The notes under the pieces are model-generated. The model had not been told where the DNA came from. It saw only the letters and a program-made list of their open reading frames with translations, and searched no databases. Positions 15,692 to 45,414 of a stretch of 47,768 nucleotides of DNA are shown here, piece by piece (position 1 is the first letter of the stretch; every line of letters starts with the position of its first letter). The DNA lies in assembly GCA_049580985.1 (NCBI GenBank), contig JBAURA010000444.1:1-47768 (forward strand). Reading direction: 5' to 3'. The position numbers and the translations under genes were made by a program. The DNA is from Chloroflexia bacterium. GTDB taxonomy: Bacteria; Chloroflexota; Chloroflexia; QHBQ01; JADMIH01.

Positions 15692-15806
15692 TTTGCAACT
15701 ACAACTCATTAACTGTGCGTTTTTCAATGCACGCAGTTCAGGCCCTCTCCACCTCGCCTGCGTTTATCCATTACCTTTCGCCCCAGCACAGACCCAGGAG
15801 TCGCTA

Positions 15807-19754: not shown

Positions 19755-19830
19755 GACCCGGCACGGCGTAATGTAATAGCCGGTAAAGCCGGTAAAGAAT
19801 GTGGCAAGCTTGGAGGCAGAGGAGGCCGCT

Positions 19831-22934: not shown

Positions 22935-23195
22935 ATGGTTAAGCCAAGTGTAGATGAGATCAGGGCCGTAGCGGCGCAGATAGTAGAACGCGCAAACCGC
23001 GACCCGCAGTTTATGGAGCAGCTTAGGAACGATCCGGAGACGGTGCTCCTTGATGCAGGCCTCCATGAAAGCGCCGTAGGAGACTTTATGCGGTCAGCAG
23101 GCCTCATGCCTGAGGTGCAAGGCTATATCCTGGAGGACCTGGATGTGCCGTGCCAGTACTCGTGTCTGCCTAACACGCATGGGGGAATAGGCTAA
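22935..23195 (+). CDS. Lanthipeptide precursor 2 (NHLP-like leader)
   Basis: 86 aa with an ATG start. AGGAGG lies ~9 nt upstream. The leader reads EIRAVAAQIVERANRDPQFMEQLRNDPETVLLDAGL, followed by a PEVQGY motif. The C-terminal region is ILEDLDVPCQYSCLPNTHGGIG. Confidence 0.75.
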   Translation: MVKPSVDEIRAVAAQIVERANRDPQFMEQLRNDPETVLLDAGLHESAVGDFMRSAGLMPEVQGYILEDLDVPCQYSCLPNTHGGIG

Positions 23196-23333: not shown

Positions 23334-23645
23334 ATGAGTTCGGATTCCAACAACCAGCAAAGCAACGAAATCAGAGAAGTAGCCCACAGAATTCTCGAAC
23401 GTGCCAAGAGCGACCCAAATTACCTGGAGCAACTCAAGAGCGATCCGGAAGCCACGCTCGCGCGGGAGGGTCTAAGCGGCCCGGTAGTCACGCAGCTAAT
23501 AGGCGAGTTTGGGCTGGTAGAGGTAGAGGGGTATTGCGATTTCACTTGTGACTATAGTTGCAACACTGGCACCTGCCAGCTCACTTATTGCGCCCATATT
23601 CCTCAAACCGGAGGGCCGATGGAGACGCAAGTAGTTGGGGGTTGA
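23334..23645 (+). CDS. Lanthipeptide precursor 3 (NHLP-like leader, five-Cys core)
   Basis: 103 aa with an ATG start and a GGAGG RBS. The leader reads EIREVAHRILERAKSDPNYLEQLKSDPEATLAREGL, followed by a VEVEGY motif. The core is CDFTCDYSCNTGTCQLTYCAHIPQTGGPMETQVVGG. The stop codon is 3 nt before the second LanL start. Confidence 0.8.
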   Translation: MSSDSNNQQSNEIREVAHRILERAKSDPNYLEQLKSDPEATLAREGLSGPVVTQLIGEFGLVEVEGYCDFTCDYSCNTGTCQLTYCAHIPQTGGPMETQVVGG

Positions 23646-27022: not shown

Positions 27023-29020
27023 TCATCGAATCTGGCAATTGGGGAAGAACGTATTGGCGACGATCTTGGCCGACTGCCCTCTGGTAACATAGGCATTGGA
27101 CCTGAAGTACGGGCGATTCTGTGGCGGTACGCACTCCTCTCCAGGACCTCCACACGGATAGCCACCTATCGCGCCGCTACTTGCGAGGCCCTCTACCCAT
27201 GTCCAGAAGGTGGAGCCCGGAGGCACATCCTCGAACGTATGCTGCTCGCTCGGCGGCACGGGTAGATTAGCTGCGATAGCTGCGATCTTAGAGGTCTGAA
27301 CCCTTGTTACATAGGCATTGGGCCGGAAGTACGGGCGATTCTGTGGCGGTACGCACTCCTCTCCCGGCGCGCCGCAAGGATAACCGCTGATGATGTTCCG
27401 TGAGGATAGGCGCTCTACAAACTGGTGGAAAGTGGAGCCTGGAGGCACATCCTGGAACGTCTGGTTCGCATGGCTCTCTGAGTAACCTGCGGCATTGGAG
27501 ACGATCTTTGATAATTGGCCACGTGTCACCTGGTTGTTCGGCCTGAAGGTGCCGTCTGTGTAGCCCGATATGATGCTTCGGCACGCCAGGCACATCACAA
27601 ACGGGTGGAATGTGCTTCCCGAAGGTACATCGCTGAAATGGAGGACGCACGCTTCACTGACGCGGTCGCGAAGGAATACGTCGCGGGTATCGTTGTTATC
27701 GCCCGGCACCAGATTACTGGCATAAGAGCCAAAGACCACGTACCGCCCATCTGAACTGACCTGGGGCTTATGGCTGTAGCCGAGGCCTGGTTGGCCGCTA
27801 GATGTGAGGCTGATCTGCTCGGTTGTGTTCGCCTGTAAATCGCGCGAGTAAATGTCGGTCACGATATTGGGGTCGGTGGGCGCGAGGCGTGCGTTCGACT
27901 GGAAAACTACATAGCGCCCGTTCCCGCTGATGTTGGGGTCGGTGCTGTGACCTGTGCCCTGGACACCCGCAGAGTCGACGCTAACACGCATGGTGCTGTC
28001 CGTCAAGTCTCGCACGAAGATATCAAGGCTATCATTGGTATCATTGACAACCAGGTTGGAAGCGAGAGACTCAAATGCCACATAGCGACCATCGTCACTC
28101 ACCGAGGCTTCAACGCTGCGGTTGTTACCCTGGACACCTCCAGAACCGGTACTCGCAAGCACGATGGTGTTCTCAGTACGATCGCGTACAAACACATCAA
28201 AGTTCATATTGCCGTCGCCGGGGACCAGGTTGTCCGCTAATGAGTGGAAGGCGACGTAGCGGCCATCAAAGCTGATGTATGGGTCAAAAGAATGGTTGCT
28301 GCCCACCTGATTAAGAGCATTCTTGCTGATAAGCTCGAATCCGCCCGACACCAGGTCGGTCACATAGACGTCCCGCGCACCCTGCGTGTCCTCCGGGACC
28401 AGGGAGGCATAGGTATGAAACACCACGAAGCGCCCATTTCCACTGATGAACGGGGCCTCGGTACCGAAGCTATCCTGCCCGATGATACTGTTCTGGCCCG
28501 TCAGCCTGTTATAAACGAACGCGTCGGCACTGCCATCGCCATCCCCCTGCACGATGTTTTCAGCATCCGACAGATAGGCGATGTAATTTCCATCGGCGCT
28601 GATACTCGGATCGAGGCTCAGGCCATTTGCGGGGCTACCATCATACCCACGGCTGATAAGCGTGGTTGTGCCCTCTTGCCGGTCGCGTAGGAATACATCG
28701 GGGTGGCCGTTAGTGTCCCCCGGTACCAGGTTGGACGCGAACGAGTAGAAGGCGACGAACCGCCCATCGGCACTCACTCCCGTGCGTATCCCCTCGATGC
28801 CACTTGCATTATTACCCTGGGCCTCATTGTCGGCCAGGCTCACCATCTCGGTGACGGCTAACGGCACAGTAGGGACGCTTCCACCTGAAGACCCCTTGCT
28901 CTCTTGAGCCGGTTGCTCCGCACCTACAGGGGTCAGAAGCAAGCCAAACATAGCGAGGCCGCTCGCTGCGGCTACCAGAGCCTGTCGGATTCGCCCTCTC
29001 TTGATATGTGATGAAAACAA
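27023..29020 (-). CDS. Secreted beta-propeller (TolB/PD40-like repeats) protein with three C-terminal SLH domains
   Basis: 665 aa with a TTG start. AGGAG lies 7 nt upstream. The signal peptide is RQALVAAASGLAMFGLLLTPVGA. There are about nine repeats of the type DGRFVAFYSFASNLVPGDTNGHPDVFLRD. The C-terminal SLH units read FSDVPSGSTFHPFVMCLACRSIISGYTDGTFRPNNQVTRGQLSKIV and two similar copies. Confidence 0.85.
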   Translation of the reverse strand: MFSSHIKRGRIRQALVAAASGLAMFGLLLTPVGAEQPAQESKGSSGGSVPTVPLAVTEMVSLADNEAQGNNASGIEGIRTGVSADGRFVAFYSFASNLVPGDTNGHPDVFLRDRQEGTTTLISRGYDGSPANGLSLDPSISADGNYIAYLSDAENIVQGDGDGSADAFVYNRLTGQNSIIGQDSFGTEAPFISGNGRFVVFHTYASLVPEDTQGARDVYVTDLVSGGFELISKNALNQVGSNHSFDPYISFDGRYVAFHSLADNLVPGDGNMNFDVFVRDRTENTIVLASTGSGGVQGNNRSVEASVSDDGRYVAFESLASNLVVNDTNDSLDIFVRDLTDSTMRVSVDSAGVQGTGHSTDPNISGNGRYVVFQSNARLAPTDPNIVTDIYSRDLQANTTEQISLTSSGQPGLGYSHKPQVSSDGRYVVFGSYASNLVPGDNNDTRDVFLRDRVSEACVLHFSDVPSGSTFHPFVMCLACRSIISGYTDGTFRPNNQVTRGQLSKIVSNAAGYSESHANQTFQDVPPGSTFHQFVERLSSRNIISGYPCGAPGEECVPPQNRPYFRPNAYVTRVQTSKIAAIAANLPVPPSEQHTFEDVPPGSTFWTWVEGLASSGAIGGYPCGGPGEECVPPQNRPYFRSNAYVTRGQSAKIVANTFFPNCQIR

Positions 29021-29495: not shown

Positions 29496-32123
29496 ATGAA
29501 CGGCGGCACCTTACCTTTTGGACAGTGGCTCAAGCAGCGCCGTAAAACGCTCGATCTCACCCAGGAAGACCTTGCCCAGCGCGTAGATTGTTCGCTCTCT
29601 TCGATAGAGAAGATCGAGTCGGGCGAGCGACGACCTTCCCGGCAAGTGGCCGATTTGCTGGCCGAGTGCCTCGGGATACCACCCGGTGAGCGTGTTGCCT
29701 TCGCACGCTTCGCCAGATCAGAACCTCGACAAGATGTAACCACTCAGCCGGGTGAGATTGCAACAGCCTCGCCCTGGCGTGTGGCTCACCGCGAGCGCAC
29801 CAATCTGCCCCTTCCTCTCACTTCTCTGGTAGGACGCAATCGCCAGGTGGAAGAGGTCAAGAACCTCCTCATGCGCGAACGAACGCGCCTTGTCACCCTT
29901 ACAGGGGCACCCGGCATCGGCAAGTCCCGCCTCTCCCTGGAAGCAGCCGCCGAAATGGCAGGCGAGTTCGAGGACGGGGTCTTCTTCGTGCCGTTGGCTT
30001 CCATAAACGACCCGGGCCTCGTACTGCCCGCGATCGCGCGCGTTATGCATATACCGGAGGCTGCCAGCGCCTCTCTGGCTGACAGCGTAAAGAAGTACCT
30101 GGGAGACAAATCCGCGCTGCTGGTCCTCGACAACTTCGAGCAGGTGATAGATGCGGCGGCGAGCGTGGTCGACCTCCTGAACTCCAGCCCCTGGCTCAAG
30201 GTAATTGTGACCAGCCGGGAACCTCTGCGCGTGCGCGGCGAGCGCCGTTATATCGTTCCACCCCTCGATGTGCCCAACCTGGCGCAATTGCCCGGTACCA
30301 CGGCTTTACTTGAATGCTCATCCGTCGCCCTCTTCGTGGAGCGCGCCCAGGAGACTAACCCCGATTTCGAGCTTACCGATGAAAGTGGGAAAGTTGTGGC
30401 TGCCCTGTGCTCCCGCCTGGATGGATTACCCCTGGCGATAGAACTGGTCGCCACCAGCCAAAACGTCTTCTCCCCTGAAACCCTGCTCAAGGGGCTGGAG
30501 GACCGGCTTACCATGCAGAGCGAGCTGCAAGATGTGCCCTCCAGACACCAGACGCTGCGCGACGCAACCCGTTGGAGTTACGACCTCCTTGATTCCGGAG
30601 AACAAAAACTGTTCGTCAGACTCGGCGTATTCGCTGGGGGCTGCACGCGCTCCGCCGCCGAGGCGGTGTGCAACGCTCAGGGCGATTTACCTCTAAAGGT
30701 AAGCAAGGGTCTAACTTCCCTGGTCACGAAGAGCTTGTTGAATGAGCAACACCCAGAACCCGAAGAGAGGCAAAGCGCGCAACAAGACGAGCCACGATAT
30801 ACGATGCTGCAGACCATCCACGAATTCGCCCTGGAGCGTTTACATGAGATCGGCGAATCGGGCACCATCTGCCGGCTGCACGCCGAATATTACCTGGCGC
30901 TGGCCGAAGCTGCAGAGTCGGAGTTGGACGGACCACAGCAAGCAGAGCTAATGGGCTGGCTCGAGAACGAGCACGATAACCTTCGGGCCGTGCTTGATTG
31001 GGCACTTGCCAGTGGTGAAGGCCATCTAGCCCTGCAGCTAAGCGGGGCCCTGGCGCGGTTCTGGAGCGCACTGGGCTATCTGAGCGAGGGCCGCACATGG
31101 CTGGAGATGGCTTTAGCCGAACCAGGCAGCCGCAAGTCGCCACACCGTGCTAAAGCTCTGGTCGGCGCGGGCATACTGGCGTCCAGGCAGGGCGACTATA
31201 AGCAGGCCAGGGCCTTCTACGAAGAGGCCCTGGCTATCTACCGGGCGAAAGAGGATAAGATGGGCAGGGCACTAGTGCTAAGCAGGTTGGGTGCTGTGGC
31301 CAACGAGCAAGGAGACCTGGATCGGGCGGACGTTTTCTATCAAGAGGGTCTTACCCTCTCCCGTGAGCTCGGCAACAAAGCCGGCATAGCTGGCATCCTG
31401 AACAACCTGGGCAATCAGGAGGTAATACGAGGCAACGTAGATCAGGCAGGCGCGTACTATCTCGACAGTTTGCAGATGGCACGCGACCTGGGCAACAAGC
31501 AAAAAGCCAGCACGGCGCTCCTCAATCTGGGGAGGCTGGCCTTTAGCTATCAAGGAGATTATGAGCTCGCTGCCTCCTATCTCGAGGAGTGCTTGAGTCT
31601 GTGCCGCGAGCTTGGCAGTAAAGGCGGCATCGCGGCAACGCTATACCAGTTCGGGCTAGCTATGTTTTACCAGCGGAGTTACTCTCGGGCTCAGGCGTTC
31701 TTCGAGGAAAGTCTGCAGTTGTGCGAGGAGTTGAGAGAAAAGCCGGGAATTGCAGCCACACGCCTGGGTCTAGGACGCACCATCTTGCTACAGGGGGGTT
31801 ACAAGCAGGCAAAGGCCTTGTTGATCGAGAGTCTGACTTTATACCAGGAGCAAGGTATAAAAGGCGGCGTGCTAGAGTGCCTTGAAGGGTTGGCAGGTTT
31901 AGCCGCAGTGGAAGGGGGAGCTACGGACGCTGCTCGCCTGTTAGGAGTTGTGGAGGCTCTGCGAGAGGATTCTGGTCTGCGGATGTCGGTAGTCCACGGC
32001 ACGCTCTTCGCCCACTGGATGGAGCAAGCTCGTGCCCGGCTCGATGATGACCACTTTACAATGGCCTGGAATGTGGGGCGCGCTATGAGTGCAGACGAGG
32101 CGATCACATTCGCCTTGCGTTAG
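29496..32123 (+). CDS. XRE-family HTH + STAND (NB-ARC-like) ATPase + TPR regulator
   Basis: 875 aa.
- HTH: FGQWLKQRRKTLDLTQEDLAQRVDCSLSSIEKIESGERRPS.
- Walker A: LTGAPGIGKSRLS.
- Walker B-like: LLVLDNFEQV.
- STAND core: LDGLPLAIELVA.
- Multiple TPR units: LNNLGNQEVIRGNVDQAGAYYLDSLQMARDLGN and similar. Confidence 0.88.
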   Translation: MNGGTLPFGQWLKQRRKTLDLTQEDLAQRVDCSLSSIEKIESGERRPSRQVADLLAECLGIPPGERVAFARFARSEPRQDVTTQPGEIATASPWRVAHRERTNLPLPLTSLVGRNRQVEEVKNLLMRERTRLVTLTGAPGIGKSRLSLEAAAEMAGEFEDGVFFVPLASINDPGLVLPAIARVMHIPEAASASLADSVKKYLGDKSALLVLDNFEQVIDAAASVVDLLNSSPWLKVIVTSREPLRVRGERRYIVPPLDVPNLAQLPGTTALLECSSVALFVERAQETNPDFELTDESGKVVAALCSRLDGLPLAIELVATSQNVFSPETLLKGLEDRLTMQSELQDVPSRHQTLRDATRWSYDLLDSGEQKLFVRLGVFAGGCTRSAAEAVCNAQGDLPLKVSKGLTSLVTKSLLNEQHPEPEERQSAQQDEPRYTMLQTIHEFALERLHEIGESGTICRLHAEYYLALAEAAESELDGPQQAELMGWLENEHDNLRAVLDWALASGEGHLALQLSGALARFWSALGYLSEGRTWLEMALAEPGSRKSPHRAKALVGAGILASRQGDYKQARAFYEEALAIYRAKEDKMGRALVLSRLGAVANEQGDLDRADVFYQEGLTLSRELGNKAGIAGILNNLGNQEVIRGNVDQAGAYYLDSLQMARDLGNKQKASTALLNLGRLAFSYQGDYELAASYLEECLSLCRELGSKGGIAATLYQFGLAMFYQRSYSRAQAFFEESLQLCEELREKPGIAATRLGLGRTILLQGGYKQAKALLIESLTLYQEQGIKGGVLECLEGLAGLAAVEGGATDAARLLGVVEALREDSGLRMSVVHGTLFAHWMEQARARLDDDHFTMAWNVGRAMSADEAITFALR

Positions 32124-32892: not shown

Positions 32893-35484
32893 TTGCAAGC
32901 CCATCCGAACAGAGGCATACCTTTTCCTGTGACCGCCTTTATAGGTAGGTTCAAGGAGCTTGCGTCCGTCGTGGCCTTGTTACGCGATCCGGAGGTGCGA
33001 TTGCTCACGCTCACAGGGCCGCCGGGTACGGGCAAAACCCGTCTGGCTATGAAAGCATCGCAAGCTCTACAAAGCGCTTTCCGTGACGGCATTTATTTCG
33101 TGCCTCTTGCTATTACGAGAGAGGCTATTGGCGTTCTCAATGCTGTTGCGCAACGGCTTGACCTCAAGCAAATTGATGAGCAATCAGCCCCCAAGCAGGT
33201 TATTGAATATCTTAGAGAGCGTGAGACTATGTTGCTGCTGGACAACTTCGAGCAGGTACTGTCCGCGGGCCCACATCTGGTTGACTTGCTCGAACAGTGC
33301 CCAGGGCTGAAGATACTTGTCACAAGCAGAGCGGCTCTCAAGGTGTATGGGGAGCAAGAGTTCCCTGTACCGCCGCTTGCCCTCCCAGACGAGGAGCAGA
33401 CAAGGTCGTTGACCGCGGACACCGCCCTGGAATACGAAGCGGTCGCACTCTTTGCTCACAGAGCCAGGTTGGTCAATCCGTATTTCGAGGTAACCGACAG
33501 CGACGCTCCGATCGTGGGACAGATTTGCCGGGAGCTTGACGGTCTGCCTCTATGTATAGAGTTGGCGGCTGCACGCTGTAAAACGATCCCTCCTGCCTCG
33601 CTGCTTGCGCTTCTAGACAACAAGTTCGACCTTCTCACCTCGGAAGCACGCAACCTGCCACTCAGGCAGCGCACTCTGGTCGCCGCAATCACCTGGAGCT
33701 ACGAACTGCTTGATCCCAGTGAAAGGACTTTGTTCAACAGGCTCTCCATATTTGTAGGCGGCTGCACCCTGGCGGCTGCTGAATATGTTTGCACTCTGCC
33801 CGGTGAGCCTCAGCATGGCATGCTTGATCCTGTCACATCGCTAATGGATAAAAGCCTGGTTGACAGAGAGGACCGGGCAGGACAGCCACGCTTCAAGATG
33901 CTGGCTACCCTACGTGAATACGCACTGGATAGGCTTAAACGATCGGGCGAAATGCACTCCGTGCACAAACAACACGCGCGTTATTTCGGACTGGTTGTGG
34001 ACAAGGCTGAGCCGTATTTGCATAGTCCCCACAGAGACCAGTGGCTAAAAAGCCTGGACTCTGAAGTCGAGAATGTGCGAGCGGCGTTAGCCTGGTGCCT
34101 ATCGGACGCGGGCGACCCTCTCGCAGCTTTGCGTATCGCCGGGGCGTTGCACTGGTTCTGGTACTTCCGCGGTTATCTGTCCGAGGGGCGGGATTGGCTC
34201 GAAAGAGCATTCGCGCGTGTAGGCAACGACTTGCCCACCACGGTCGAGACGGCCAAGGCGCTGGATGCGGCGGGCCACCTCGCTCTGCTACAGGACGACT
34301 ACGAGGCCGTGCAGTCTCATCTGACGCGCGCCCTTGCCATGTGGCGGGAGTTGGGCGACGACAAGGGCTTGGCTTACTCACTTAGTCATGCGGGAATTGC
34401 ACGCGTGTACAGGCACGCAGACATAACGGGGCTTGCTCTGCTGAAGGAGTCGCTGAATCTATTCCAGGGCACCGACGACACATGGGGATTGGCGACAGCT
34501 TATGACCTGTGCGCCGAAGCTCACATTTTGCTCGGCGATTCTGCGGCTGCGGCAGGTTGTTACAATGAAAGTCTGCGCCTTTTCCGCGAGATGGGAGATA
34601 TGTGGGGGATCGCCGCCGAACTAGGAGAGATCAGTCGGGTTGAAATTAGGCAGGGCAACTATGTTGCAGCAAAATCGAAGCTTGACGAAGCCCTATCCAC
34701 TGAGAGGCTGGTGGAAGATCGCTGGAACAGGGCGCATACGCTCCGCAGCCTGGGCGATGTCGCTTATTGCCTGAACGACTATCAAGAGGCGCACCTATGC
34801 TACGAAAGCGCTGCCGAATTATACCGCGACCTGGGGGATCGCATGCGAATGGGGGCATGCTTGCGCTGCCTGGGCCACGTCGCACTTAGGACCAACCAGC
34901 CTGAAAACGCGAAAGCTCTCTACCTGCATAGTCTCGGCATCGCAGCGAGTCTAGGGGCGACTCCCAGCCTGGCATGGTGTCTGGCTGCTATGGCCGGATG
35001 GGCAGTCCGGATGGGCGAGGCAATACGCGCCGCCGAACTCCTGGGTGCTGCCGATAGACTGGGCAAGGCTAATCATGCAATACTGCCTGTCGTCGATGCG
35101 CACGAACGGGCCCGGACCTACGAATTGATCAAGTCGAGCCTCGGTAAGCAAGAGTTCGCCTTAGCCACAGTTCGAGGCGCTTCATTGGGGACCGAGGATG
35201 CGATAACGGTCGCGCAAAGGGTAGCCGAGCTCGGTTTGAAACAAGAGTCAGACGATATTCCCACATATGGCGGCAGACGCTCGCCGACCGTACCCAAGTT
35301 GAGCGCCCGCGAAATAGAGGTAGTCAAATTAGTGGAGCAAGGCTTGAGCAATGCCGAGATAGCTGATGCTCTCATTCTCAGCACGAATACTGTGCGCGCC
35401 CACCTCTACTCGGTCTTCGACAAGTTCGGTGTACCATCACGTACAGCCGCGGTCAGATACGCTAGAGAGAACGGCCTGATTTAG
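32893..35484 (+). CDS. STAND (NB-ARC-like) ATPase + TPR + C-terminal LuxR-type HTH regulator
   Basis: 863 aa with a TTG start (start uncertain).
- Walker A: LTGPPGTGKTRLA.
- Walker B-like: MLLLDNFEQV.
- STAND core: LDGLPLCIELAAAR.
- TPR units.
- C-terminal LuxR HTH: LSAREIEVVKLVEQGLSNAEIADALILSTNTVRAHLYSVFDKFGV. Confidence 0.88.
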   Translation: MQAHPNRGIPFPVTAFIGRFKELASVVALLRDPEVRLLTLTGPPGTGKTRLAMKASQALQSAFRDGIYFVPLAITREAIGVLNAVAQRLDLKQIDEQSAPKQVIEYLRERETMLLLDNFEQVLSAGPHLVDLLEQCPGLKILVTSRAALKVYGEQEFPVPPLALPDEEQTRSLTADTALEYEAVALFAHRARLVNPYFEVTDSDAPIVGQICRELDGLPLCIELAAARCKTIPPASLLALLDNKFDLLTSEARNLPLRQRTLVAAITWSYELLDPSERTLFNRLSIFVGGCTLAAAEYVCTLPGEPQHGMLDPVTSLMDKSLVDREDRAGQPRFKMLATLREYALDRLKRSGEMHSVHKQHARYFGLVVDKAEPYLHSPHRDQWLKSLDSEVENVRAALAWCLSDAGDPLAALRIAGALHWFWYFRGYLSEGRDWLERAFARVGNDLPTTVETAKALDAAGHLALLQDDYEAVQSHLTRALAMWRELGDDKGLAYSLSHAGIARVYRHADITGLALLKESLNLFQGTDDTWGLATAYDLCAEAHILLGDSAAAAGCYNESLRLFREMGDMWGIAAELGEISRVEIRQGNYVAAKSKLDEALSTERLVEDRWNRAHTLRSLGDVAYCLNDYQEAHLCYESAAELYRDLGDRMRMGACLRCLGHVALRTNQPENAKALYLHSLGIAASLGATPSLAWCLAAMAGWAVRMGEAIRAAELLGAADRLGKANHAILPVVDAHERARTYELIKSSLGKQEFALATVRGASLGTEDAITVAQRVAELGLKQESDDIPTYGGRRSPTVPKLSAREIEVVKLVEQGLSNAEIADALILSTNTVRAHLYSVFDKFGVPSRTAAVRYARENGLI

Positions 35485-35747: not shown

Positions 35748-35776
35748 TTGACTTACTTGTGTATCTATGATACATT
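35748..35776 (+). promoter_or_regulatory. Sigma70-like promoter upstream of the repeat-core precursor gene
   Basis: TTGACT (35748-35753), a 17-nt spacer, then TACATT (35771-35776). It sits in an AT-rich stretch ~85 nt upstream of the ATG at 35862. Confidence 0.5.
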
Positions 35777-35861
35777 TTGTATAACTTGACCGCCGCCAAG
35801 TACTCTGATGCCTGTTGCAAGGCGTCGACTTGTCGTACCATTACTGGTCAGGAGGCAAACT

Positions 35862-36470
35862 ATGTCCGTAATCGATCCCAACAATGATACCGATTTCATA
35901 GCGAAATCAATCGCCCACAACCTGCGCTACCCACCGCCGAACGTTGTGCCCTATTGGGGCTACCTTACGGCGGCCCTGAAGAGAGTACCCAATAACGGCA
36001 ACCCGAGCGCTGGCCATGAAAACGATCTTGAGCCGCCTAATGCGACTGATATCTATTGGAGGCTCTACAGAACGCTAGAGTTGCGGGAATACATCGAGTT
36101 TAGCGACGACGATGTAGTGTTCTTCAGAAAATTGGCGCTTCCACTAGCGGGGCAGGCGCAGTTACATGGTGGTTTGGTCTGGCTTAGAGTCGGAGCAAAA
36201 CTCGACCACGTAGTTGTCAATCATATGGAGGTGGAAGCCAACTACCTTCAAGGGCCCATTACGTCCACCGCCGGACCGCCCCAAGCTGGCCCCATCCATC
36301 CTGAGGGCTACTCGCCGTCAAACGTCTCATGGACCTGCGGAGGGCATTCATTCGCCTGTGGAGGGCAGTCTTTTGCATGTGGTGGGCATTCATTCGCGTG
36401 CGGAGGACAGTCTTTTGCATGTGGTGGGCACTCATTCGCCTGCGGAGGACAGTCATTCAACTGTGGGTGA
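35862..36470 (+). CDS. Precursor-like protein: 158-aa N-terminal domain plus six tandem CGG[H/Q]SF[A/N] heptads
   Basis: The ORF track starts at 35808. The ATG at 35862 (MSVIDPNN) has GGAGG 6 nt upstream. The C-terminus is TCGGHSFACGGQSFACGGHSFACGGQSFACGGHSFACGGQSFNCG. The gene lies immediately upstream of the kinase and lyase-cyclase genes. Confidence 0.75.
   Translation: MSVIDPNNDTDFIAKSIAHNLRYPPPNVVPYWGYLTAALKRVPNNGNPSAGHENDLEPPNATDIYWRLYRTLELREYIEFSDDDVVFFRKLALPLAGQAQLHGGLVWLRVGAKLDHVVVNHMEVEANYLQGPITSTAGPPQAGPIHPEGYSPSNVSWTCGGHSFACGGQSFACGGHSFACGGQSFACGGHSFACGGQSFNCG
36336..36467 (+). repeat. Tandem 21-bp coding repeat organised as three 42-bp (His-unit + Gln-unit) super-repeats
   Basis: tgc gga ggg cat tca ttc gcc / tgt gga ggg cag tct ttt gca / tgt ggt ggg cat tca ttc gcg / tgc gga gga cag tct ttt gca / tgt ggt ggg cac tca ttc gcc / tgc gga gga cag tca ttc aac / tgt ggg. 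In the first two Gln-units, the codon choices (tct ttt gca) differ consistently from those in the His-units (tca ttc gcN). Confidence 0.9.
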
Positions 36471-36570
36471 CAGATATTCAACTGCGACCGTTGGTGACTA
36501 GTTCGTCGCTCCACGCTGGTTTTCTGCGCCGAAAGCGAAAGCGATTGGGCGACTACCTCAAGATACCGCG

Positions 36571-37689
36571 ATGCTAACTAAAGAAGCGGTCGCTCCCTAC
36601 TTGATGCGCCAGGGTTTGCTCGACCCCGAAGCTCTGGTAGAGAGCGGCCTCTCGATACGCCGCATCGCAGGTCGTAACTCCAATTTCATAATTGAACTAG
36701 CTAATGGCTCTGGTTACTTGCTCAAACAGGCTGTGGATGCCGAGAAGGCCTCGTTTCTTGATAACGAAGCCAGAGTCTACACCTACCTCTCAGGGTATAA
36801 CGATCAATTCACTCGTTACATACCTCCTTTGCAATCCTATAACGAGGACGAGCACATACTCGTGCTGGGGCTGCTGCCGAGTGCTCGGCAGCTAGGAGAA
36901 CATCTCGTCCGGACCGGACGCTTCTCGACTATGATAGCCAGACAGCTTGGCCGAATGCTGGCGGCTCTGCATAGGCGTGGATCTCACGATAGAGCCAACA
37001 ATCCTGTAACGCTGGCTACCAGACCAGTGCCCTGGGTTCTTTCTATCCACCGTCCGCATATTGAATTGTACCGCCTCGCCAGTCAGGCTAATCTCAACTT
37101 GATAGCTAAGATACAGATGTTCCCTGACCTTTGCGACCACATCGAGGCACTCAAGCAAACCTGGCAGCCACTAGCTCTGATACACTACGACCTAAAGCTG
37201 GAAAACATGCTGGTGGTTCCGGCCACAAAAGCCGGCCAATCGCGTTTGACCGTCCGGCTGGTTGACTGGGAGATGGCGGGCATCGGTGATCCTTGCTGGG
37301 ACATTGGATCGGTATTCGGTGCGGTATTGAGCTTTTGGCTTCACTCCATGCCCTTTTCTGGAGATGGCGCTCAAGGTTTGTCACCAGAGTTCGCGCGCTT
37401 CCCCTTGCAGAGAGCGAGGTCCGCTTTATTGAACTTCTGGATCTCGTACGAGCGAGGCATGCAGTTCGCTCCAAGTATATCGAACGATTGCCTACTGCGG
37501 TCCACCAGTTTCGCCGCCGCACGGTTGGTGCAATCGGTGTTCGAGCAATGCCAGGTAATGACGCAGCTTCCAGGCACAGCATTGAATGCACTGCAACTCA
37601 GCTCAAATATACTACACAAACCGCTGGAAGCCGCAGTCCACTTGCTAGGGCTACAGCCACGAGTCGAGTGGAACGAGGCGCAACTTTGA
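36571..37689 (+). CDS. Aminoglycoside-phosphotransferase/choline-kinase-family kinase (LanK / TvaC-like candidate)
   Basis: 372 aa. The catalytic loop is LIHYDLKLENMLV and the metal-binding segment is LVDWEMAGIGDPCWDIG. The N-lobe reads GRNSNFIIELANGSGYLLKQ. The stop codon overlaps the start of the next gene (TTGA). Confidence 0.8.
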   Translation: MLTKEAVAPYLMRQGLLDPEALVESGLSIRRIAGRNSNFIIELANGSGYLLKQAVDAEKASFLDNEARVYTYLSGYNDQFTRYIPPLQSYNEDEHILVLGLLPSARQLGEHLVRTGRFSTMIARQLGRMLAALHRRGSHDRANNPVTLATRPVPWVLSIHRPHIELYRLASQANLNLIAKIQMFPDLCDHIEALKQTWQPLALIHYDLKLENMLVVPATKAGQSRLTVRLVDWEMAGIGDPCWDIGSVFGAVLSFWLHSMPFSGDGAQGLSPEFARFPLQRARSALLNFWISYERGMQFAPSISNDCLLRSTSFAAARLVQSVFEQCQVMTQLPGTALNALQLSSNILHKPLEAAVHLLGLQPRVEWNEAQL

Positions 37690-39968
37690 TAGAGATCGAT
37701 TACAAGGCTCAGCTATTGGCTGCTGTGAGGGCTGTACGAATAGTGTCGTTGAACCGATACTCGTGGTTTGGAGCCGACACAATCGTACTGCCCGGCCGGG
37801 TCAGGCGCGCAGTCAGTCCAGACCTAGCCCGGCGCTACCTCGGGTCGAGCTTGCAGCACAGGCTCTACAACGATTTCTACTGCAAGGGAAATCCAATGCG
37901 GGGGTCAGCAGGCACGTACGGACCGCTCCAACAGAACGCGATACCCTTCCTTCAGCAGCTTGAAAGAGCAAACAGAGGCGTGGGAGGCTGGGAGACCGGT
38001 TGGCGCGTGGTGGCCAGGGGCAACCCTGCCGTCGTGCTTGAGGATGGTCGCCTTGCGCTCTGGCCGCGCCCAGATGAAATGTGGCTGGTGAACCAGGAAG
38101 CAGAGTTGGGGCACGAAGGGGCATTGCGCTATCCGAAGGGCCTTCCTTCGATCTCGCCGGGCTTCTATTTGGTGCTTGGGGACACGCCCCCGCCAGCCAA
38201 TGGCAGTGGGCCGCTTGTTCGGCTCTACTGGAACGTGTCTGCCCAAGGTGCGGCAGTTCTGGTCGGCCTGGTCACAGAGGCTCTCAACAGGTTACAGGCT
38301 CCGTTCCGCCTGAAGGTGGTTAGCAACCCTGAGCAGTTCGATAGGTGCGACACGGCGATACTCTACATAGAGGTATCACGCTACGCAACTGTCGCGGCCA
38401 CGCTGGTGGGGATCTATGCGCAGGTGCGCGACACCCTGCGCGGAGACGTGCCAGCGCTGACTGGTAAGCTTGCGCCGGGGCTTGGATTAGCCGAGGACCC
38501 AGGTGGCGGAGAGAGTTACGGCCTCCACATGTGCGGGCTACTCGCTGAAGGTCTGCTCAGAGCTTTTGAGCTTGGTCTTTCGGGTGATGCGAGATTGGGA
38601 AGTGTGCTTGCGTTACTACAAGAGAGAGGCATCTCGCCGGAGCGGCCCTATTTGCGGCCAGGTTCCCAGGATATATACAACTTCGACGTTCACCACTCAT
38701 CCGGAGCTGGGAAGGGCACCCTTGTTTGGATCGAAAACGCAACGGATTCAGACAGGGCGGATTATTTGGAAACGGCGGCGTTTATAGGGTGGCAGTTATG
38801 CCGCACGGCCATATGGTACAACAGGCGCTGCACGTGGATAGGCGCAACTGCTCCAGGCACGGTGCCCGGTGACCGATACGGGCAAGCGCTAGCTACGTTA
38901 GGACCTGATCTGTACGCTGGGACCGCGGGGGTAGGGCTATTTCTGGCCTGCCTGGCGGAGGTCACCGGCGACCCAACGGTTGAAAGGACGGCGCTCGGAG
39001 CGATGGAGCAGGCTTTCGCAACGGCAGACAGGATCGCGCCGGCCGATAGGCAGGGATTGTACACTGGCTGGATCGGGATTGCGCTTGCAGGTTGCTACCT
39101 TGACCGTTGTATGGGCCAGGGCTGGTCCAGCAGGGCAGCTAACTTGCTCGACACACTACTTGAAGCCGGCGACGCGCCCGGCGGGTTTGACTACCTGGGG
39201 GGCAGCGCTGGCGCTATCATGGGGCTGCTCGCGCTGAAACGGTTGCTGGGCTGTGGCTACCTTTATGACAGGGCGCGCTCTATGGGCGATCAATTAGCAC
39301 TGGCCGGTGCAACCGGAGAATATGCGCCGGAAGCGCATCGAACGAACGCTGGAAGGAAGTGGGGGAGAAGACCGCTAACGGGCCTTGCTCACGGAGCAGC
39401 AGGAGTGGGAGCTGCTCTTATGGAGCTGTACGCGACATCTCAGGAAGTCCGGTACAGGCACGCTTCCGAAGCGGCTTTCGCATATGAGCGTGCATACTTC
39501 GATATTCTAGAGGCTAACTGGCCAGATTTCAGGGCCGGGATTCGCAGGCCATACGCCTACTCAACACACTGGTGTCACGGCGCGCCCGGCATAGCTTTGA
39601 CCAGGCGGCGCGCATACAGCCTAACGGGAGATGTCAAATACCTGGAGGAAACGCAAGCCGGTATACAAACTACAGAACAATGGCTTGAGAGCGCGCTGCG
39701 CGCGGACCGTGAAAACTTCTCCCTGTGTCATGGGCTAGGTGGCAACGCCTGGATCGCTTTTGAAGCTGCTACACCAGGGGGTGTAGGTCGGTATTACGCC
39801 CATGCAGTGGCCAGGCGGGGCATAGAAGCTCACAAGAGATACGGAGTGTGGTTGTGTGGAACGCCTGGAGGAGAGGCCCAGGGATTGATGCTAGGTCTCT
39901 CAGGCATAGGCCTTTTCTACTTGCGTCTCGCCGGGGTAAGCTCCTTTTCACCTCTGTACATAATCTAG
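37686..39968 (+). CDS. Fusion protein: HopA1-like domain (candidate pSer/pThr lyase) + LanC-like cyclase with Zn ligands
   Basis: The ORF is open from 37293, but that part overlaps the kinase gene out of frame. Likely starts are TTG 37686 (4-nt overlap with the kinase stop) or GTG 37668.
- N-terminal half: GPLVRLYWNVSAQGAAVLV...FRLKVVSNPEQFDRCDTAILYIEVSRY (HopA1-type pattern as I recall it).
- C-terminal half: GTAGVGLFLA, GLAHGAAGVGAAL, THWCHGAPGIAL, SLCHGLGGNAWI, GLSGIGLFYLRL. Confidence 0.75.
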   Translation: MIEIDYKAQLLAAVRAVRIVSLNRYSWFGADTIVLPGRVRRAVSPDLARRYLGSSLQHRLYNDFYCKGNPMRGSAGTYGPLQQNAIPFLQQLERANRGVGGWETGWRVVARGNPAVVLEDGRLALWPRPDEMWLVNQEAELGHEGALRYPKGLPSISPGFYLVLGDTPPPANGSGPLVRLYWNVSAQGAAVLVGLVTEALNRLQAPFRLKVVSNPEQFDRCDTAILYIEVSRYATVAATLVGIYAQVRDTLRGDVPALTGKLAPGLGLAEDPGGGESYGLHMCGLLAEGLLRAFELGLSGDARLGSVLALLQERGISPERPYLRPGSQDIYNFDVHHSSGAGKGTLVWIENATDSDRADYLETAAFIGWQLCRTAIWYNRRCTWIGATAPGTVPGDRYGQALATLGPDLYAGTAGVGLFLACLAEVTGDPTVERTALGAMEQAFATADRIAPADRQGLYTGWIGIALAGCYLDRCMGQGWSSRAANLLDTLLEAGDAPGGFDYLGGSAGAIMGLLALKRLLGCGYLYDRARSMGDQLALAGATGEYAPEAHRTNAGRKWGRRPLTGLAHGAAGVGAALMELYATSQEVRYRHASEAAFAYERAYFDILEANWPDFRAGIRRPYAYSTHWCHGAPGIALTRRRAYSLTGDVKYLEETQAGIQTTEQWLESALRADRENFSLCHGLGGNAWIAFEAATPGGVGRYYAHAVARRGIEAHKRYGVWLCGTPGGEAQGLMLGLSGIGLFYLRLAGVSSFSPLYII

Positions 39969-39978
39969 CGAAAGGCAG

Positions 39979-40037
39979 CAGCTAAGAGCTGACGCTGTCG
40001 AGACCTACGAGACCTCAATAGCGTCAGCTCTTAGCTG
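39979..40037. terminator. Bidirectional terminator hairpin between convergent genes
   Basis: CAGCTAAGAGCTGACGCT (39979-39996), a 23-nt loop, then AGCGTCAGCTCTTAGCTG (40020-40037), followed by TTT. It lies between the stop at 39968 (+) and the stop at 40040 (-). Confidence 0.7.
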
Positions 40038-40039
40038 TT

Positions 40040-42844
40040 TCATGCGGTGTCCATCGTAGTTATGGCGATGTTGTTGTCGAAGGGGACGAGCCGCCAGACA
40101 AGGGTAGGTCCGCTGGCGCAAGGGAGTGCAAGGGCGGCTGCCGGGTCAATGTTGCTCAGGTCTCCATACGCACTCACGTCAACAAGCAGGAGCACCTGCG
40201 GCCTGTCGGGGACTGTCCATTCCAGTGGCCCTATGATCTCTACGCCGCCCGCACCGACGGGCGGTCCGGATATGGAGCCTATTGAACCCGCCGACCAATC
40301 GTTAGGCCACACCGCGCCGGGAGTGCCATTGCTGTGGTAAGCTCGCATCGTCACAAGTGTGGCTGACTGGTAACCCCGATTCCACACCCGTACATACAGA
40401 TAGTTGACCGCTTTACGCACGGGTGGCTGGTGTTCGGTTAGAGGGTTTACAGTCGCAGGGTTGGGCGGCGTCGCGTAGCTCGCGCGCCGGTTCCATATCT
40501 CCGTGGTGCCATGAAAGTTCTCCAGGTACGGGGCATAGGAGCCTCGGCGGGAGTCATCTATGTACAAATCCACAGGCTGCTTGCCTGGCGCGACGACAGG
40601 TGCTGATGAGCCAGGCGGCTGATAGAGACCTTGCTGCTCGAAGCTCCATTTGATCACCTTTCCCACCGCACCGCCCGCCAGAGAGTGAGGTGTAGGCAAG
40701 TTGGGTATCTCGAGGGCCGGGTCCGGAAATGCCACAGTTGCCTTGTCAGCCTCCAACATAGCCGTCACGTAAGCGTCGGGCGTGCTTGTGGGTGTGGAGG
40801 AAGCAGGCGGCAGGCCACCAATAGCTCTGATGATCAGGTAACTCATGTACCGTGCCGCTAACTCTTTGACCGCCCGCGCAGCGGGTATCTCGTCGTGAGC
40901 AGACATGGTAGCATCGCCCCCCAGCGCGCAATACGCCCTGAATAAGGATGTAGAGAGTATCTGCTCTTGTTGGTAGCCCCAGTAGGGCTTCATGCCCTGC
41001 TTATCCTCATTGTCTATCTGGCCGCCCCATGCGTAATTCAGGTAGGTGCGTAACGAACCGCCGTGATACCTCCATCGCCCACTCAAAGCCGGATTCTGGC
41101 TCATCAGCCAGGGGTACGTGCCAAAACGCTCCGGTTCATTCACCAGCATGGTAGCAGGGTCGCTCAGTATGGCGGCGAGGCTGTCGCCAGCGCTGTGCGC
41201 GAAGGGGAAGTTGGGCGCGTGGAGGCGCGACCAGAGCAGAGCGTGGCAAAACTCATGCATCGTGATACGTGGGTCCAGCGCGTTGCCCCAGAATACCAGA
41301 GGTTCTGAGTTTAGTCGCCCGTAGTAAACGCTATCGAGGCGGGTAAAGTCTTCGTAACCCATCGTGCGCGCATCTACAGCGCCTTCCGTGCCAAGCGGGT
41401 CAACTCGAATAGGCACTTGAAGGTTGGGCGGGAAGAAGTCGTTCAACAACCCAAGATACTCCAGCAGGCCAAACATCGAGTCAAGATGGTAGTACGCGCT
41501 CACTGCGGTAAACTTCGAGGATTCGGTAATGATTTCATAGTTGAAGTTGAAGCTTAAGCTGCCAGACGGGTTTTCTGCTTGATCTTCGCCAACCGAGGGG
41601 TTCCACAGATCTGTTATATAAAGCCATTTGCCACTAAGCTTGACAGGTTTCCCCACTTCGCGGCTCACCTCGAACGACACAGGCACTCGCAGATTACGGA
41701 CATGGCTATCGCTCACAGAGGTGGGCGGAAAGAACAGGTCGTTGCCCCGGGACGTAACAGGATCAGCGTTCAGCACAAGGCCATTAGCAGTCACCATCTG
41801 CATGGCAGCAGCGACAACCGGCATATCGCCTCCTGCTGCACCCCCTGTGCCCGTTTTGCCCGTTTCGTCTATAGCTCCAACATCCTCATCATCGAAACCG
41901 TCGAGCGAGGCCGAGGCAGCATTGGGTGAGAGCAAGCTTGGCTGCTCATAATCCAAGAAACTGTCAGGGTCGTCCAGGGAGGGACTTACGAGGTTACTGT
42001 CAAGCGCTGGAGAAGGGTCTGCGAAGCAAGATACCAGCGACGTTTCCACAGAGAGCGCAAATCCAGTTTCGGTATGCACGAACGCTCGCCAATTTACGTA
42101 GCTGGGTCGCATATCGCTTCCGGTCACGCTCACGGTGAAGAGAACCTCCGTCACCAGGTAGTGTAAGCCGCCCACAAATATACCCGGCGGGAGCGGGGGC
42201 AAAGGAAGGGTTGTCAGCCTATCCAAGAAGGCGTCGGCCGACGCGGCTGTTTCTGTCATCACATCACGAGGCGACGCTTGATAGCGATAGTAAAGGAGCC
42301 TTGTGGCCTTGAACTGGACCACTTTCCTGTCCAGGGCAGGGTTATACAGTCCCAACAACGTCTCCAACATAGGTAGCGATATGCGACCGGGCAGATAAGG
42401 CGCGGTTGCCGGGTCTGTCCCTTCCCACACAGGCGAGAGATGGAGAGAGCTTTGGGAGCTTGTGATACGCAAGTTCTTGTTGTGTGGGCTAACCACAACC
42501 GATACGCCCGCTTCCCACACAGGCAGCCCGTTGATGGTCTGCGTGTAGCAAACTACGTGAGTCTTGTCGGGATTGCCTACCGATACGACGGTATTGAAGC
42601 GCAACTGAGACCCGTCCTTCGGTATAAAGTCTGAGCCTATGGGCGTACTTAAGTCGAGCTTAACCGTGTGATCGGGGTCGTAGTGGGTAGGCAGGTTTTC
42701 CACCAGGTAGCTCTGCGCCAGCAAGGCCGGGTATGACCCTTCTATATACTGGCCGAATTCCCTGATGTGTTCTATGTGCACGAGGCGACCTCGGTCGTCT
42801 CGCACACTATGGATGTTGGGCGACAGCAAATTGATACTTACCAC
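40040..42844 (-). CDS. Large putative zinc metallopeptidase (HExxH)
   Basis: 934 aa with a GTG start. AGGAGG lies 8 nt upstream. There is a single HExxH motif in the context RITMHEFCHALLWSRLH. No obvious signal peptide is present. I cannot assign a family by eye. Confidence 0.6.
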   Translation of the reverse strand: MVSINLLSPNIHSVRDDRGRLVHIEHIREFGQYIEGSYPALLAQSYLVENLPTHYDPDHTVKLDLSTPIGSDFIPKDGSQLRFNTVVSVGNPDKTHVVCYTQTINGLPVWEAGVSVVVSPHNKNLRITSSQSSLHLSPVWEGTDPATAPYLPGRISLPMLETLLGLYNPALDRKVVQFKATRLLYYRYQASPRDVMTETAASADAFLDRLTTLPLPPLPPGIFVGGLHYLVTEVLFTVSVTGSDMRPSYVNWRAFVHTETGFALSVETSLVSCFADPSPALDSNLVSPSLDDPDSFLDYEQPSLLSPNAASASLDGFDDEDVGAIDETGKTGTGGAAGGDMPVVAAAMQMVTANGLVLNADPVTSRGNDLFFPPTSVSDSHVRNLRVPVSFEVSREVGKPVKLSGKWLYITDLWNPSVGEDQAENPSGSLSFNFNYEIITESSKFTAVSAYYHLDSMFGLLEYLGLLNDFFPPNLQVPIRVDPLGTEGAVDARTMGYEDFTRLDSVYYGRLNSEPLVFWGNALDPRITMHEFCHALLWSRLHAPNFPFAHSAGDSLAAILSDPATMLVNEPERFGTYPWLMSQNPALSGRWRYHGGSLRTYLNYAWGGQIDNEDKQGMKPYWGYQQEQILSTSLFRAYCALGGDATMSAHDEIPAARAVKELAARYMSYLIIRAIGGLPPASSTPTSTPDAYVTAMLEADKATVAFPDPALEIPNLPTPHSLAGGAVGKVIKWSFEQQGLYQPPGSSAPVVAPGKQPVDLYIDDSRRGSYAPYLENFHGTTEIWNRRASYATPPNPATVNPLTEHQPPVRKAVNYLYVRVWNRGYQSATLVTMRAYHSNGTPGAVWPNDWSAGSIGSISGPPVGAGGVEIIGPLEWTVPDRPQVLLLVDVSAYGDLSNIDPAAALALPCASGPTLVWRLVPFDNNIAITTMDTA

Positions 42845-43938: not shown

Positions 43939-45414
43939 ATGACACGTGAAGATAGATCGCGCAAGAACGCCGCGCGAAGAGACAATGGCCAGAATAACGC
44001 CGGCTTTGGCTTCAACATAACCGACGGCATCGGCGACACAGGCGGAGTCGCTGGCAACGGCAACGGTAACGGCAACGGTGCGAACAACATCGTTCCGGGC
44101 ACCACCGGCCGCTACCTCGTTCTCCTCAAAGAGAATACCGTAGCTGAAGGCGTATCTCTCTTGAGGGAGTCTACCGGCCTGAGAGTAACCTCAACTCAGG
44201 ACTCTGCTGATGGAGTTCTGGATGAAGAACAACTTCAAAACACCGATGTGATCGTGTTTGACCAGCTTGCAGTAGCCGTGGTTGACGCGCTGCCCGAGCA
44301 CATCAATGCGATCAGTGGAGTTATGGGCAACGAAAGCAGCCCCATCCTCGCTATAGAGCCTGAGCGCATCGTGTTCGCGTTCGAGGATAACGCGCCCGGC
44401 TTTTCAACCGGGGTTGGACTACAGGTACGCGAAGCAGAGGCAACTGTGCCCGCGGACTATCTCTACGGCTACAAAGACGCTGTTGACCATCTGATCGAGA
44501 AGTTACTTGGCAACGGGCAACTCTCAGAGGAATACGGTAGTGAAGAAACAGCTTCCTACGTCGAGAGCGAGTACACCTGGGGCTTGCAAGCGACTAAAGT
44601 AGTATCCACACGCTACACAGGCCGGGGCATCAAAGTAGCCGTACTCGATACTGGATTCGACTTGCGACACCCTGACTTCGTAGGGCGCACCGTGGTCACC
44701 AAGTCGTTCATAGCGGGCGAGCCGGTAGAGGACGGACATGGGCATGGAACGCATTGCATCGGCACTGCCTGCGGTCCCAAGCGACCGACTCAGCTGCCTC
44801 GTTATGGCATTGCCTACCAGGCGGAGATCTACGCCGGCAAGGTGTTGAACAATCGGGGCAGCGGCACCGATAGCGGCATCCTGGCCGGAATCAACTGGGC
44901 CGTCGCCAACAAATGCCAGGTAGTCTCTATGTCGCTTGGTGCGCCCGTGATGCCCGGTCAATCGCATTCGCAGATCTTTGAGCAAGTGGCAAATCGGGCA
45001 TTGGCGGCTGGCACGCTCATTATCGCTGCGGCAGGCAATTCCAGTCGCCGCCCTGGCTCGATCAATCCAGTGGGCCACCCCGCCAACTGCCCATCGATCA
45101 TGGCCGTGGGCGCGCTTGACTCGGCTTTGCGAATAGCATTCTTTTCCGAGGGCGGTTTGCAACCCAACGGCGGCCAGGTGGACATTGCCGGGCCGGGCGT
45201 GGATGTCAGGTCCAGTTGGCCGAGGCCGATGCTCTACCGCACCATCAGCGGCACAAGCATGGCTACCCCGCACGTAGCAGGCATCGCTGCCCTCTTCGCC
45301 GAGTCGAACGCACGCGCCAGAGGACGGGTGCTCGCTCAATTGGTGATGCAACACGCTCGCAGGCTGGCCCTTCCAGCCCGCGACGTGGGGACAGGCCTGG
45401 TACAGGCTCCCTAA
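43939..45414 (+). CDS. S8 (subtilisin-family) serine peptidase with an N-terminal propeptide-like region
   Basis: 491 aa. The triad contexts are VAVLDTGFDLRHPDF (Asp), GHGHGTHCIGTA (His) and SGTSMATPHVAG (Ser). The N-terminus has a GNGNGNGNG low-complexity tract and an I9-like segment (RYLVLLKENTVAEG...VIVFDQLAVAVVDA). No hydrophobic signal peptide is present. Confidence 0.88.
   Translation: MTREDRSRKNAARRDNGQNNAGFGFNITDGIGDTGGVAGNGNGNGNGANNIVPGTTGRYLVLLKENTVAEGVSLLRESTGLRVTSTQDSADGVLDEEQLQNTDVIVFDQLAVAVVDALPEHINAISGVMGNESSPILAIEPERIVFAFEDNAPGFSTGVGLQVREAEATVPADYLYGYKDAVDHLIEKLLGNGQLSEEYGSEETASYVESEYTWGLQATKVVSTRYTGRGIKVAVLDTGFDLRHPDFVGRTVVTKSFIAGEPVEDGHGHGTHCIGTACGPKRPTQLPRYGIAYQAEIYAGKVLNNRGSGTDSGILAGINWAVANKCQVVSMSLGAPVMPGQSHSQIFEQVANRALAAGTLIIAAAGNSSRRPGSINPVGHPANCPSIMAVGALDSALRIAFFSEGGLQPNGGQVDIAGPGVDVRSSWPRPMLYRTISGTSMATPHVAGIAALFAESNARARGRVLAQLVMQHARRLALPARDVGTGLVQAP

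Follow-up and report, generated by a model that had tools for sequence, protein, structure and literature searches.

The window analysed here comprises the 47,768 nt of contig JBAURA010000444.1 from a Chloroflexia bacterium (assembly GCA_049580985.1). It contains a three-gene operon that probably encodes a class V (subgroup Vb) lanthipeptide pathway using a LanC cyclase, in which lyase and cyclase are fused into one polypeptide and a 202-aa protein is the substrate, with up to seven rings. The genes encode a LanA-like precursor (202 aa, 35862..36470), a LanK-type Ser/Thr kinase of the APH fold (372 aa, 36571..37689) and a HopA1::LanC fusion protein (760 aa, 37686..39968). As a preliminary description of the region had stated, the three genes are co-directional; all are present on the + strand and tightly packed. 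The ribosome binding site AGGAGG lies in front of the precursor gene at 35850-35855, and the TTG start codon of the fusion gene at 37686 overlaps the TGA stop codon of the kinase gene in a TTGA arrangement.

The precursor is identical to an NCBI "hypothetical protein" (P0121) encoded on a 1.6-Mb contig of a Chloroflexia metagenome-assembled genome (MAG). Its last 47 residues consist of SWTC, five units in which GGHSFAC and GGQSFAC alternate (beginning and ending with GGHSFAC), a single GGQSFNC and a terminal G. The six C-terminal CGG[H/Q]SF[A/N] heptads counted previously are therefore present, and adding the preceding SWTC gives seven S-x-x-C motifs (residues 156-202, 36327..36467, + strand), which start at residues 156, 163 and so on up to 198. 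All seven Cys residues of the protein lie at 159-201 with a spacing of exactly 7, each with a Ser at position -3, and residues 1-150 are free of Cys. In the DNA, TRF detected at positions 36334-36458 a period of 21 nt with 6 copies (73% matches) and one of 42 nt with 2.7 copies (92% matches); the 42-nt unit is apparently younger than the 21-nt period. The closest homologue, P0122 (62% identity), was the sole one obtained by direct search. Its locus, L001, is fully syntenic with the window (TPR/GerE regulator, precursor, APH, HopA1::LanC, convergent large protein), and its tail keeps CGGQSF[A/S] repeats. The SWTC before the first heptad is conserved in both proteins.

The N-terminal part of the precursor is quite different in character. 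An AlphaFold2 (AF2) model and matches to a family profile delimit a conserved "leader" domain at residues ~10-120 (35889..36221, + strand). In the model, residues 10-120 are folded, with a helix at 10-22 and six strands, and pLDDT is 82-93 outside an insertion at 40-60; this insertion of ~20 residues within the domain is shared with the L001 homologue. Residues 123-202 are predicted to be disordered, and pLDDT in the core region is below 50. When the precursor model was compared with the PDB by Foldseek, nothing significant came up (best E = 0.25, TM about 0.12), though the disordered tail of the model may depress these scores. Scanned against Pfam and NCBIfam, the window precursor and five further family members gave no match except a chance-level one to RecT, and none to the NHLP or Nif11 leader models.

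The kinase carries the motifs HYDLKLEN and DWE, and its assignment to APH is correct (Pfam PF01636, E = 3.6e-15). The best NCBIfam match is LxmK (4.4e-27), and in the PDB its best sequence match is again LxmK, as chain 9dk1_A in a complex with LxmY (LxmKY). It had been considered that the protein might group with APHs involved in antibiotic resistance, but the best family and PDB matches are both LxmK; viomycin and capreomycin phosphotransferases were matched only at E >= 1e-3, versus 4.4e-27 for LxmK.

The fusion protein is a single 760-aa open reading frame (ORF), identical to an NCBI protein. Pfam recognises HopA1 (PF17914, 7.4e-36, residues 153-322) and LANC_like (2.8e-47, residues 404-748), both counted from 37689 and thus one below the 760-aa numbering; this bears out the HopA1-like N-terminal half and LanC-like C-terminal half that had been proposed. 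The LanY-type phospho-Ser/Thr lyase half spans residues 1 to ~345 (37686..38720, + strand) and the LanC-type zinc cyclase half residues ~395-760 (38869..39968, + strand, stop codon included). Mean pLDDT of an AF2 model built on 27 homologues is 83.7. The absence of a lyase fold in the N-terminal half would have spoken against the assignment, but Foldseek superposes this half over essentially the whole LxmY chain (9dk2_B; E = 8.6e-15, target TM 0.75). Its best PDB sequence match is in 9DK1 (chain B), the same entry as for the kinase (chain A), which Foldseek labels as lexapeptide dehydratase complex LxmKY.

The catalytic residues support this assignment. When R187, K219 or R229 of CaoY is mutated, elimination is lost or weakened; a fourth residue, Y236, is conserved (PMC9486802). 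By spacing (31/10/7 vs 32/10/7), R179, K210, R220 and Y227 of the fusion protein correspond to these four residues; K210, R220 and Y227 align with LxmY too, and all four are invariant in 27 homologues. The C-terminal half matches LanCL1/2 with TM 0.68-0.69, NisC with 0.59 and MadC with 0.58 in Foldseek, and also fits the cyclase parts of CuvL, LicM2 and ThurKC. All zinc-ligand contexts named in the preliminary description, AHGAAG (H569), WCHG (C630/H631) and CHGLGG (C681/H682), are present and invariant in the 27 homologues. Pfam found neither Pkinase nor RamC_N, the hallmarks of classes III and IV, in the fusion protein. The NCBIfam models of LanL and LanKC cover only its cyclase part, far below cut-off. 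Similarly, the LanM model TIGR03897 is matched only at model positions 540-930 (cyclase), with 207 bits vs a cut-off of 304.

Class V is divided into subgroup Va, with LanK, LanY, LanD and LanX and no LanC, and subgroup Vb, with LanK, LanY and a dedicated LanC (PMC11186320, PMC12291118, PMC12328550). The architecture does not, as first supposed, fall outside classes I-V: LanK, LanY and a zinc LanC together make up subgroup Vb as already described. Likewise, the suggestion that class V dehydration is joined to a zinc cyclase by gene fusion was sound in its chemistry, as supported by the APH kinase, HopA1 lyase and zinc LanC, but the combination itself was already established. By its predicted domain content, the locus is a fused-enzyme variant of the class Vb pathway. 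An APH kinase, a HopA1 lyase with the Arg/Lys/Arg/Tyr set and a zinc LanC are all found; only the separate LanY and LanC polypeptides of the Smo system are replaced by a single chain. Class V clusters containing LanC reportedly number more than 240, a count that is said to come from the 2022 study by Pei and co-workers.

The only characterised class Vb member is reportedly mSmoA, made by SmoK, SmoY and SmoC (Pei et al. 2022, doi 10.1021/jacs.2c06808, per PMC11186320, PMC12291118 and PMC12328550). The Smo system resembles the window locus in that an APH-fold kinase and a HopA1-fold lyase dehydrate and a dedicated LanC cyclises, with no LanD or LanX. It differs in having lyase and cyclase on separate chains, and its product is a small stapled peptide whose rings overlap, whereas the prediction here is an array of seven S-x-x-C motifs in tandem. 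A survey of 1,340 HopA1-domain proteins (Eyles et al. 2021, PMC8153245) had already pointed out HopA1-LanC fusions and raised the possibility of a "new uncharacterised lanthionine synthetase". The fusion proteins listed there have the same fused domains next to a phosphotransferase; the survey was bioinformatic only, and short RiPPER peptides (Families 11/20 and 22) were assigned to them, unlike the long precursor of the window.

The class Va enzymes LxmK/LxmY (lexapeptide; PDB 9DK1-9DK3) and CaoK/CaoY (cacaoidin) share with the window enzymes the conserved catalytic Arg/Lys/Arg/Tyr set, and LxmK/LxmY are what the kinase and the lyase half match best in sequence and fold, yet identity between this half and LxmY is only about 24%. 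Class Va clusters also differ in lacking LanC and in using LanD and LanX for AviMeCys (aminovinyl-methylcysteine) formation; no ORF for a LanD flavoprotein decarboxylase or LanX occurs in or next to the operon. Class IV LanL (e.g., CuvL) and class III LanKC likewise bring lyase, kinase and cyclase activities to one substrate, and LanL has a zinc LanC domain. However, these enzymes combine an OspF-type lyase, a PF00069 kinase and a cyclase on one chain, whereas the window kinase is of the APH fold and separate, and the lyase is LanY-type.

In the proposed pathway, the folded N-terminal domain (about 120 residues) of the precursor would act as the recognition ("leader") element and the disordered tail as a core with seven Ser-x-x-Cys motifs. 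The stand-alone kinase would phosphorylate the tail serines with ATP, and the HopA1-fold domain would remove the phosphate to yield dehydroalanines (Dha). The LanC zinc site would then activate each Cys for Michael addition, giving up to seven thioether rings. The favoured pattern is a row of Dha(i)-Cys(i+3) lanthionines that do not overlap, because in this register all seven Ser and all seven Cys can pair, SWTC included. Finally, the leader would presumably be cut off, for which a convergently encoded HExxH protein is the best candidate (see below). Dehydration by LanK and LanY has been reconstituted in vitro with CaoK/CaoY (PMC9486802). From that chemistry, and from LanC enzymology, we infer phosphorylation, elimination and Cys addition at this locus; recognition by the folded domain and later removal of the leader are assumed.

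The fused enzyme is not confined to the window. At least 314 homologous protein clusters were found among the 8,000 candidates scored, and the 120 homologues listed have 38-46% identity and the same two Pfam domains. When one genome per species was scanned, relatives (fused or split) were found in at least 476 species genomes. These belong to phyla including Chloroflexota, Acidobacteriota, Planctomycetota and Gemmatimonadota, with further relatives in Actinomycetota (Catellatospora, Micromonospora, Nonomuraea, Plantactinospora), Tumebacillus, Bacteroidota (Flavobacterium, Kordia, Spirosoma), Undibacterium, Pseudomonas and Nitrososphaeraceae archaea. A sample of 82 related loci was assembled from the window, the syntenic relative L001 and the 80 best genome loci. 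Nearly all of them have an APH homologue immediately upstream. Adjacent but separate ORFs encode lyase and cyclase in 51 of the loci, a fusion of the two occurs in 28, and in 1 the kinase is part of the fusion as well. This distribution argues against a separate invention: the fusion is one of the states that a single gene set takes in its evolution.

The triple fusion is encoded in a Gemmatimonadota MAG (DATBJZ010000087.1; L031, 5435-9355, + strand) and comprises 1306 aa with the Pfam order APH::HopA1::LANC_like. It places kinase, lyase and cyclase on one chain, as LanL does, but differs from LanL in domain order and in kinase and lyase families. Two other loci, L003 and L007, belong to Nitrososphaeraceae MAGs (ammonia-oxidising archaea by contig assignment) and have a fused HopA1::LanC with an adjacent APH gene. 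A leader-domain ORF was not detected in either; the L003 kinase gene starts ~580 nt from the contig end.

The precursor also belongs to a family. A phmmer search against the ORFs of the related loci gave weaker matches to its N-terminal part directly upstream of the kinase, and an iterated leader-domain profile matched ORFs in 56 of the 82 loci. Of the loci with enough upstream sequence, 35 of the 46 split ones and 14 of the 21 fused ones have a leader-domain ORF no more than 3 kb upstream of the kinase; split and fused loci have the same precursor family in common. The domain is conserved over about 110 residues (consensus D..LV..LVPDP...L.GFLG.S....RLY...L..Y.E...DI.H...LGG..VWV...A.L....FL.G.I). 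The window precursor fits the definition of the family, namely a Cys-free N-terminal domain, a Cys/Ser/Thr-rich tail and a gene directly upstream of APH. For 53 members, the median Cys content is 0% in the leader and 8.4% in the tail, where Ser and Thr together make up 14.5%, and 17 of the tails hold a 5-mer repeated at least 3 times. Repeats include TSTCP (11 copies in the 792-aa member of L058), many CPPTPLTH units (L077) and CPSQLTFCQSQ (L045); further large members have 864 aa (L015) and, as the upper end, 917 aa (L030).

At E <= 1e-3, an exhaustive search of 1.84 billion representative proteins with the leader profile returned 2,738 clusters, formed at 50% identity; at E <= 1e-10 the number was 1,605. 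Lengths among the 150 matches listed were 134 to 816 aa. Nearly all of the 45 homologues with a source name in databases are called "hypothetical". The repeat protein had been put forward as the substrate, a proposal that would have been undermined if its homologues occurred mainly without the enzymes. On the contrary, all five proteins picked by leader homology alone have APH, HopA1 and LANC_like genes directly downstream of their own, and with homologues adjoining kinase, lyase and cyclase genes in this manner the likeliest substrate is the repeat protein.

Large protein-domain-derived N-terminal regions before a hypervariable core are a feature of the NHLP and Nif11 long-leader precursors (proteusins, prochlorosins). 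The family described here has no sequence relationship to these, its leader domain is longer, and many members have very long repetitive tails. No description of the domain was found in the literature, which is weak evidence since subscription journals lay mostly outside the search. The leader-domain motifs searched for were also absent from the peptide data of Eyles et al. 2021 (PMC8153245), which may be partial. This long-leader, repeat-rich precursor family thus appears to be so far undescribed in the resources searched.

We tentatively suggest that the leader domain defines a large unannotated family dedicated to LanK, LanY and LanC, present in many bacterial phyla and some Nitrososphaeraceae archaea, with members ranging from short-core peptides to proteins of 300-900 aa with dozens of Cys/Ser/Thr repeats. 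Under this suggestion the products would be lanthionine-stapled repeat proteins rather than conventional small lanthipeptides, and the domain would serve as a folded recognition module. Such recognition could account both for a copy of the domain inside an HExxH protein and for a separately encoded leader, two arrangements described below. If a long folded leader is indeed the recognition element, the notion of a lanthipeptide precursor would be broadened, more so if repeat proteins of 300-900 aa are substrates. The domain would then also be a new handle for genome mining, as finders of RiPPs (peptides made on the ribosome and then modified) that are limited to short peptides miss such precursors. 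Class Vb has one characterised member, and fused LanY-LanC enzymes, widespread in more than 300 protein clusters, are experimentally unstudied in the literature found. The three-gene locus is a compact test case, with a regular S-x-x-C array that should read out easily by mass and ring pattern.

Convergent to the operon, at 40040..42844 on the - strand, lies the gene for a 934-aa protein with an HExxH motif (HEFCHALL), a candidate leader peptidase. The syntenic L001 homologue (phmmer 4e-248) has 1101 aa (8537-11842, - strand) and shares 52% identity with it over the C-terminal 600 residues. Residues 358-489 of the L001 protein are an in-frame copy of the leader domain (phmmer 7.7e-44 vs precursor residues 11-144). 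The window protein is without this insert and has a short linker at that position. Because its homologue carries a leader-domain copy, the HExxH protein is indirectly tied to the precursor and is the best peptidase candidate. A PDB sequence search with a threshold as lax as E = 10 returned nothing for it, Pfam has no match to its C-terminal 587 residues, and the protein is not a conserved feature of the wider family.

In three of the five independently sampled loci, S8 peptidase genes lie directly upstream of the leader-domain precursor (L084 3973-5943, L085 4433-5971, L086 4420-5955), some with a pro-kumamolisin activation domain. These are candidate leader peptidases in those lineages. An S8 subtilase at 43939-45414 of the window was considered as their counterpart and discarded; it shows only generic catalytic-domain similarity, with 24% identity to one of them.

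A number of observations weigh against the pathway as proposed. With 95 bits vs the LxmK equivalog cut-off of 315, the kinase is by this measure a distant relative of LxmK and not an orthologue. The HExxH protein has only a sub-threshold FTP propeptide match and no supported family, and neither a transporter nor a recognised leader peptidase is conserved family-wide across the 82 loci. No characterised HopA1-LanC fusion, nor any experiment on a fused homologue, was found in the literature, where again subscription journals were mostly outside the search. A Cys(i)-Ser(i+4) register is possible and would fit six of the seven pairs equally well. Lastly, two Bacteroidota loci, L085 and L086, have a leader-domain gene of 137-146 aa whose tail is only ...CGCGKCG; between it and the APH/HopA1/LanC genes lies a second gene, whose product is a Cys/Thr/Gly repeat protein of 363 or 525 aa that has no leader (L085 6001-7597, L086 6001-8113). 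These repeat proteins consist of GPTGTQGCT... units with AQAQ separators. Because leader and repeat protein are separate genes there, the leader domain might work in trans, or not as a classical cleaved leader.

The N-terminal domain may accordingly not be a cleaved leader at all, the product being a lanthionine-stapled mature protein or the domain a trans-acting scaffold or chaperone for the enzymes. Its predicted folded unit of about 110 residues is far larger than typical leaders, members reach 917 aa, and the copy within the L001 HExxH protein suggests domain-domain or domain-enzyme contacts; the split genes of L085 and L086 and the lack of a conserved transporter or leader peptidase point the same way. 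We nevertheless regard this explanation as unlikely, as the domain mostly forms one polypeptide with a Cys-rich tail, encoded directly upstream of the kinase in the classical precursor arrangement, and three of the five sampled loci have S8 peptidase genes directly upstream of the precursor. The ORF clustering of the 82 neighbourhoods found nothing in common beyond precursor, kinase, lyase and cyclase, and its crude ORF picking may miss short genes.

A different fate of the tail can be envisaged if the heptad array is a multi-core precursor that is cut after modification into small identical or near-identical monocyclic peptides, as in cyanobactins or microviridins. The strict 7-residue period with near-identical units, the recent DNA repeats (42-nt unit, 92% matches) and the tens of repeated units in other family members would suit such a scheme. 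It is rather improbable, however, given that no spacer or recognition sequence separates the units, that each ring in the S-x-x-C register crosses a unit boundary with just Gly-Gly-x between rings, and that no dedicated processing protease is conserved family-wide. The chance that the LanC domain forms no intramolecular rings is very slight. In that event the enzymes would only dehydrate, or an external thiol would be added, as by eukaryotic LanCL with glutathione. LanCL2 is the top phmmer match of the cyclase half, LanCL1/2 have the highest target-normalised TM-scores among stand-alone LanC proteins, and some class V rings arise without a cyclase (PMC11186320). Against this, the substrate has one Cys per Ser at fixed spacing, tails are Cys-rich across the family and the characterised class Vb LanC reportedly directs intramolecular rings (PMC11186320, PMC12328550).

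The signals flanking the operon are less clear than its genes. The TTGACT-17-TACATT promoter reported previously is present as a sigma-70-like match at 35748..35776 (+ strand), with TG before the -10 element, but such matches are no more frequent than chance (3 in the region vs 2.4 +/- 1.6 in shuffles); its function as the promoter of the operon is plausible. Downstream, a strong hairpin at 39979..40037 (arms 39979-40002 and 40014-40037) lies between the convergent genes. Its 24-nt arms are 92% complementary and its folding energy is -44.6 kcal/mol (z = -6.6). The terminator thought to close the operon is therefore real as a hairpin, but it is followed by UUU only, a weak U tract, and a terminator scan of the region made no call there. 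The hairpin is probably a bidirectional terminator between the convergent genes.

Upstream of the operon, a STAND-ATPase/TPR/LuxR (GerE) regulator is encoded at 32893..35484 (+ strand, Pfam). A TPR/GerE regulator is found immediately upstream in L001 too, and the window protein may possibly control the pathway.

Elsewhere in the window there are two genes for class IV LanL synthetases (NCBIfam NF038150), at 15657-18623 and 23649-26480 on the + strand. They score 670 and 666 bits vs a cut-off of 650 and contain RamC_N, Pkinase and LANC_like domains. With the fusion operon, the window therefore holds three predicted lanthipeptide systems of two classes. Each LanL gene has candidate precursors of 86-103 aa encoded ahead of it (ORFs 15342-15605, 22935-23195 and 23334-23645); their C-termini are rich in Cys, Thr and Ser (e.g., ...CDFTCDYSCNTGTCQLTYC). 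Between the LanL genes, at 19801-22848 (+ strand), lies an ABC transporter gene (ABC_membrane + ABC_tran) with a C-terminal cyclic-nucleotide-binding domain, whose product could be a cyclic nucleotide-regulated exporter of the LanL peptides. A SLH/PD40-repeat surface protein and several large STAND-type regulators are encoded between the RiPP operons (27023-29020, - strand; 29496-32123, + strand; 8499-12071, - strand). These regulators combine HTH, NB-ARC and TPR, or TPR and BTAD domains, and the density of regulators in the window is unusually high.

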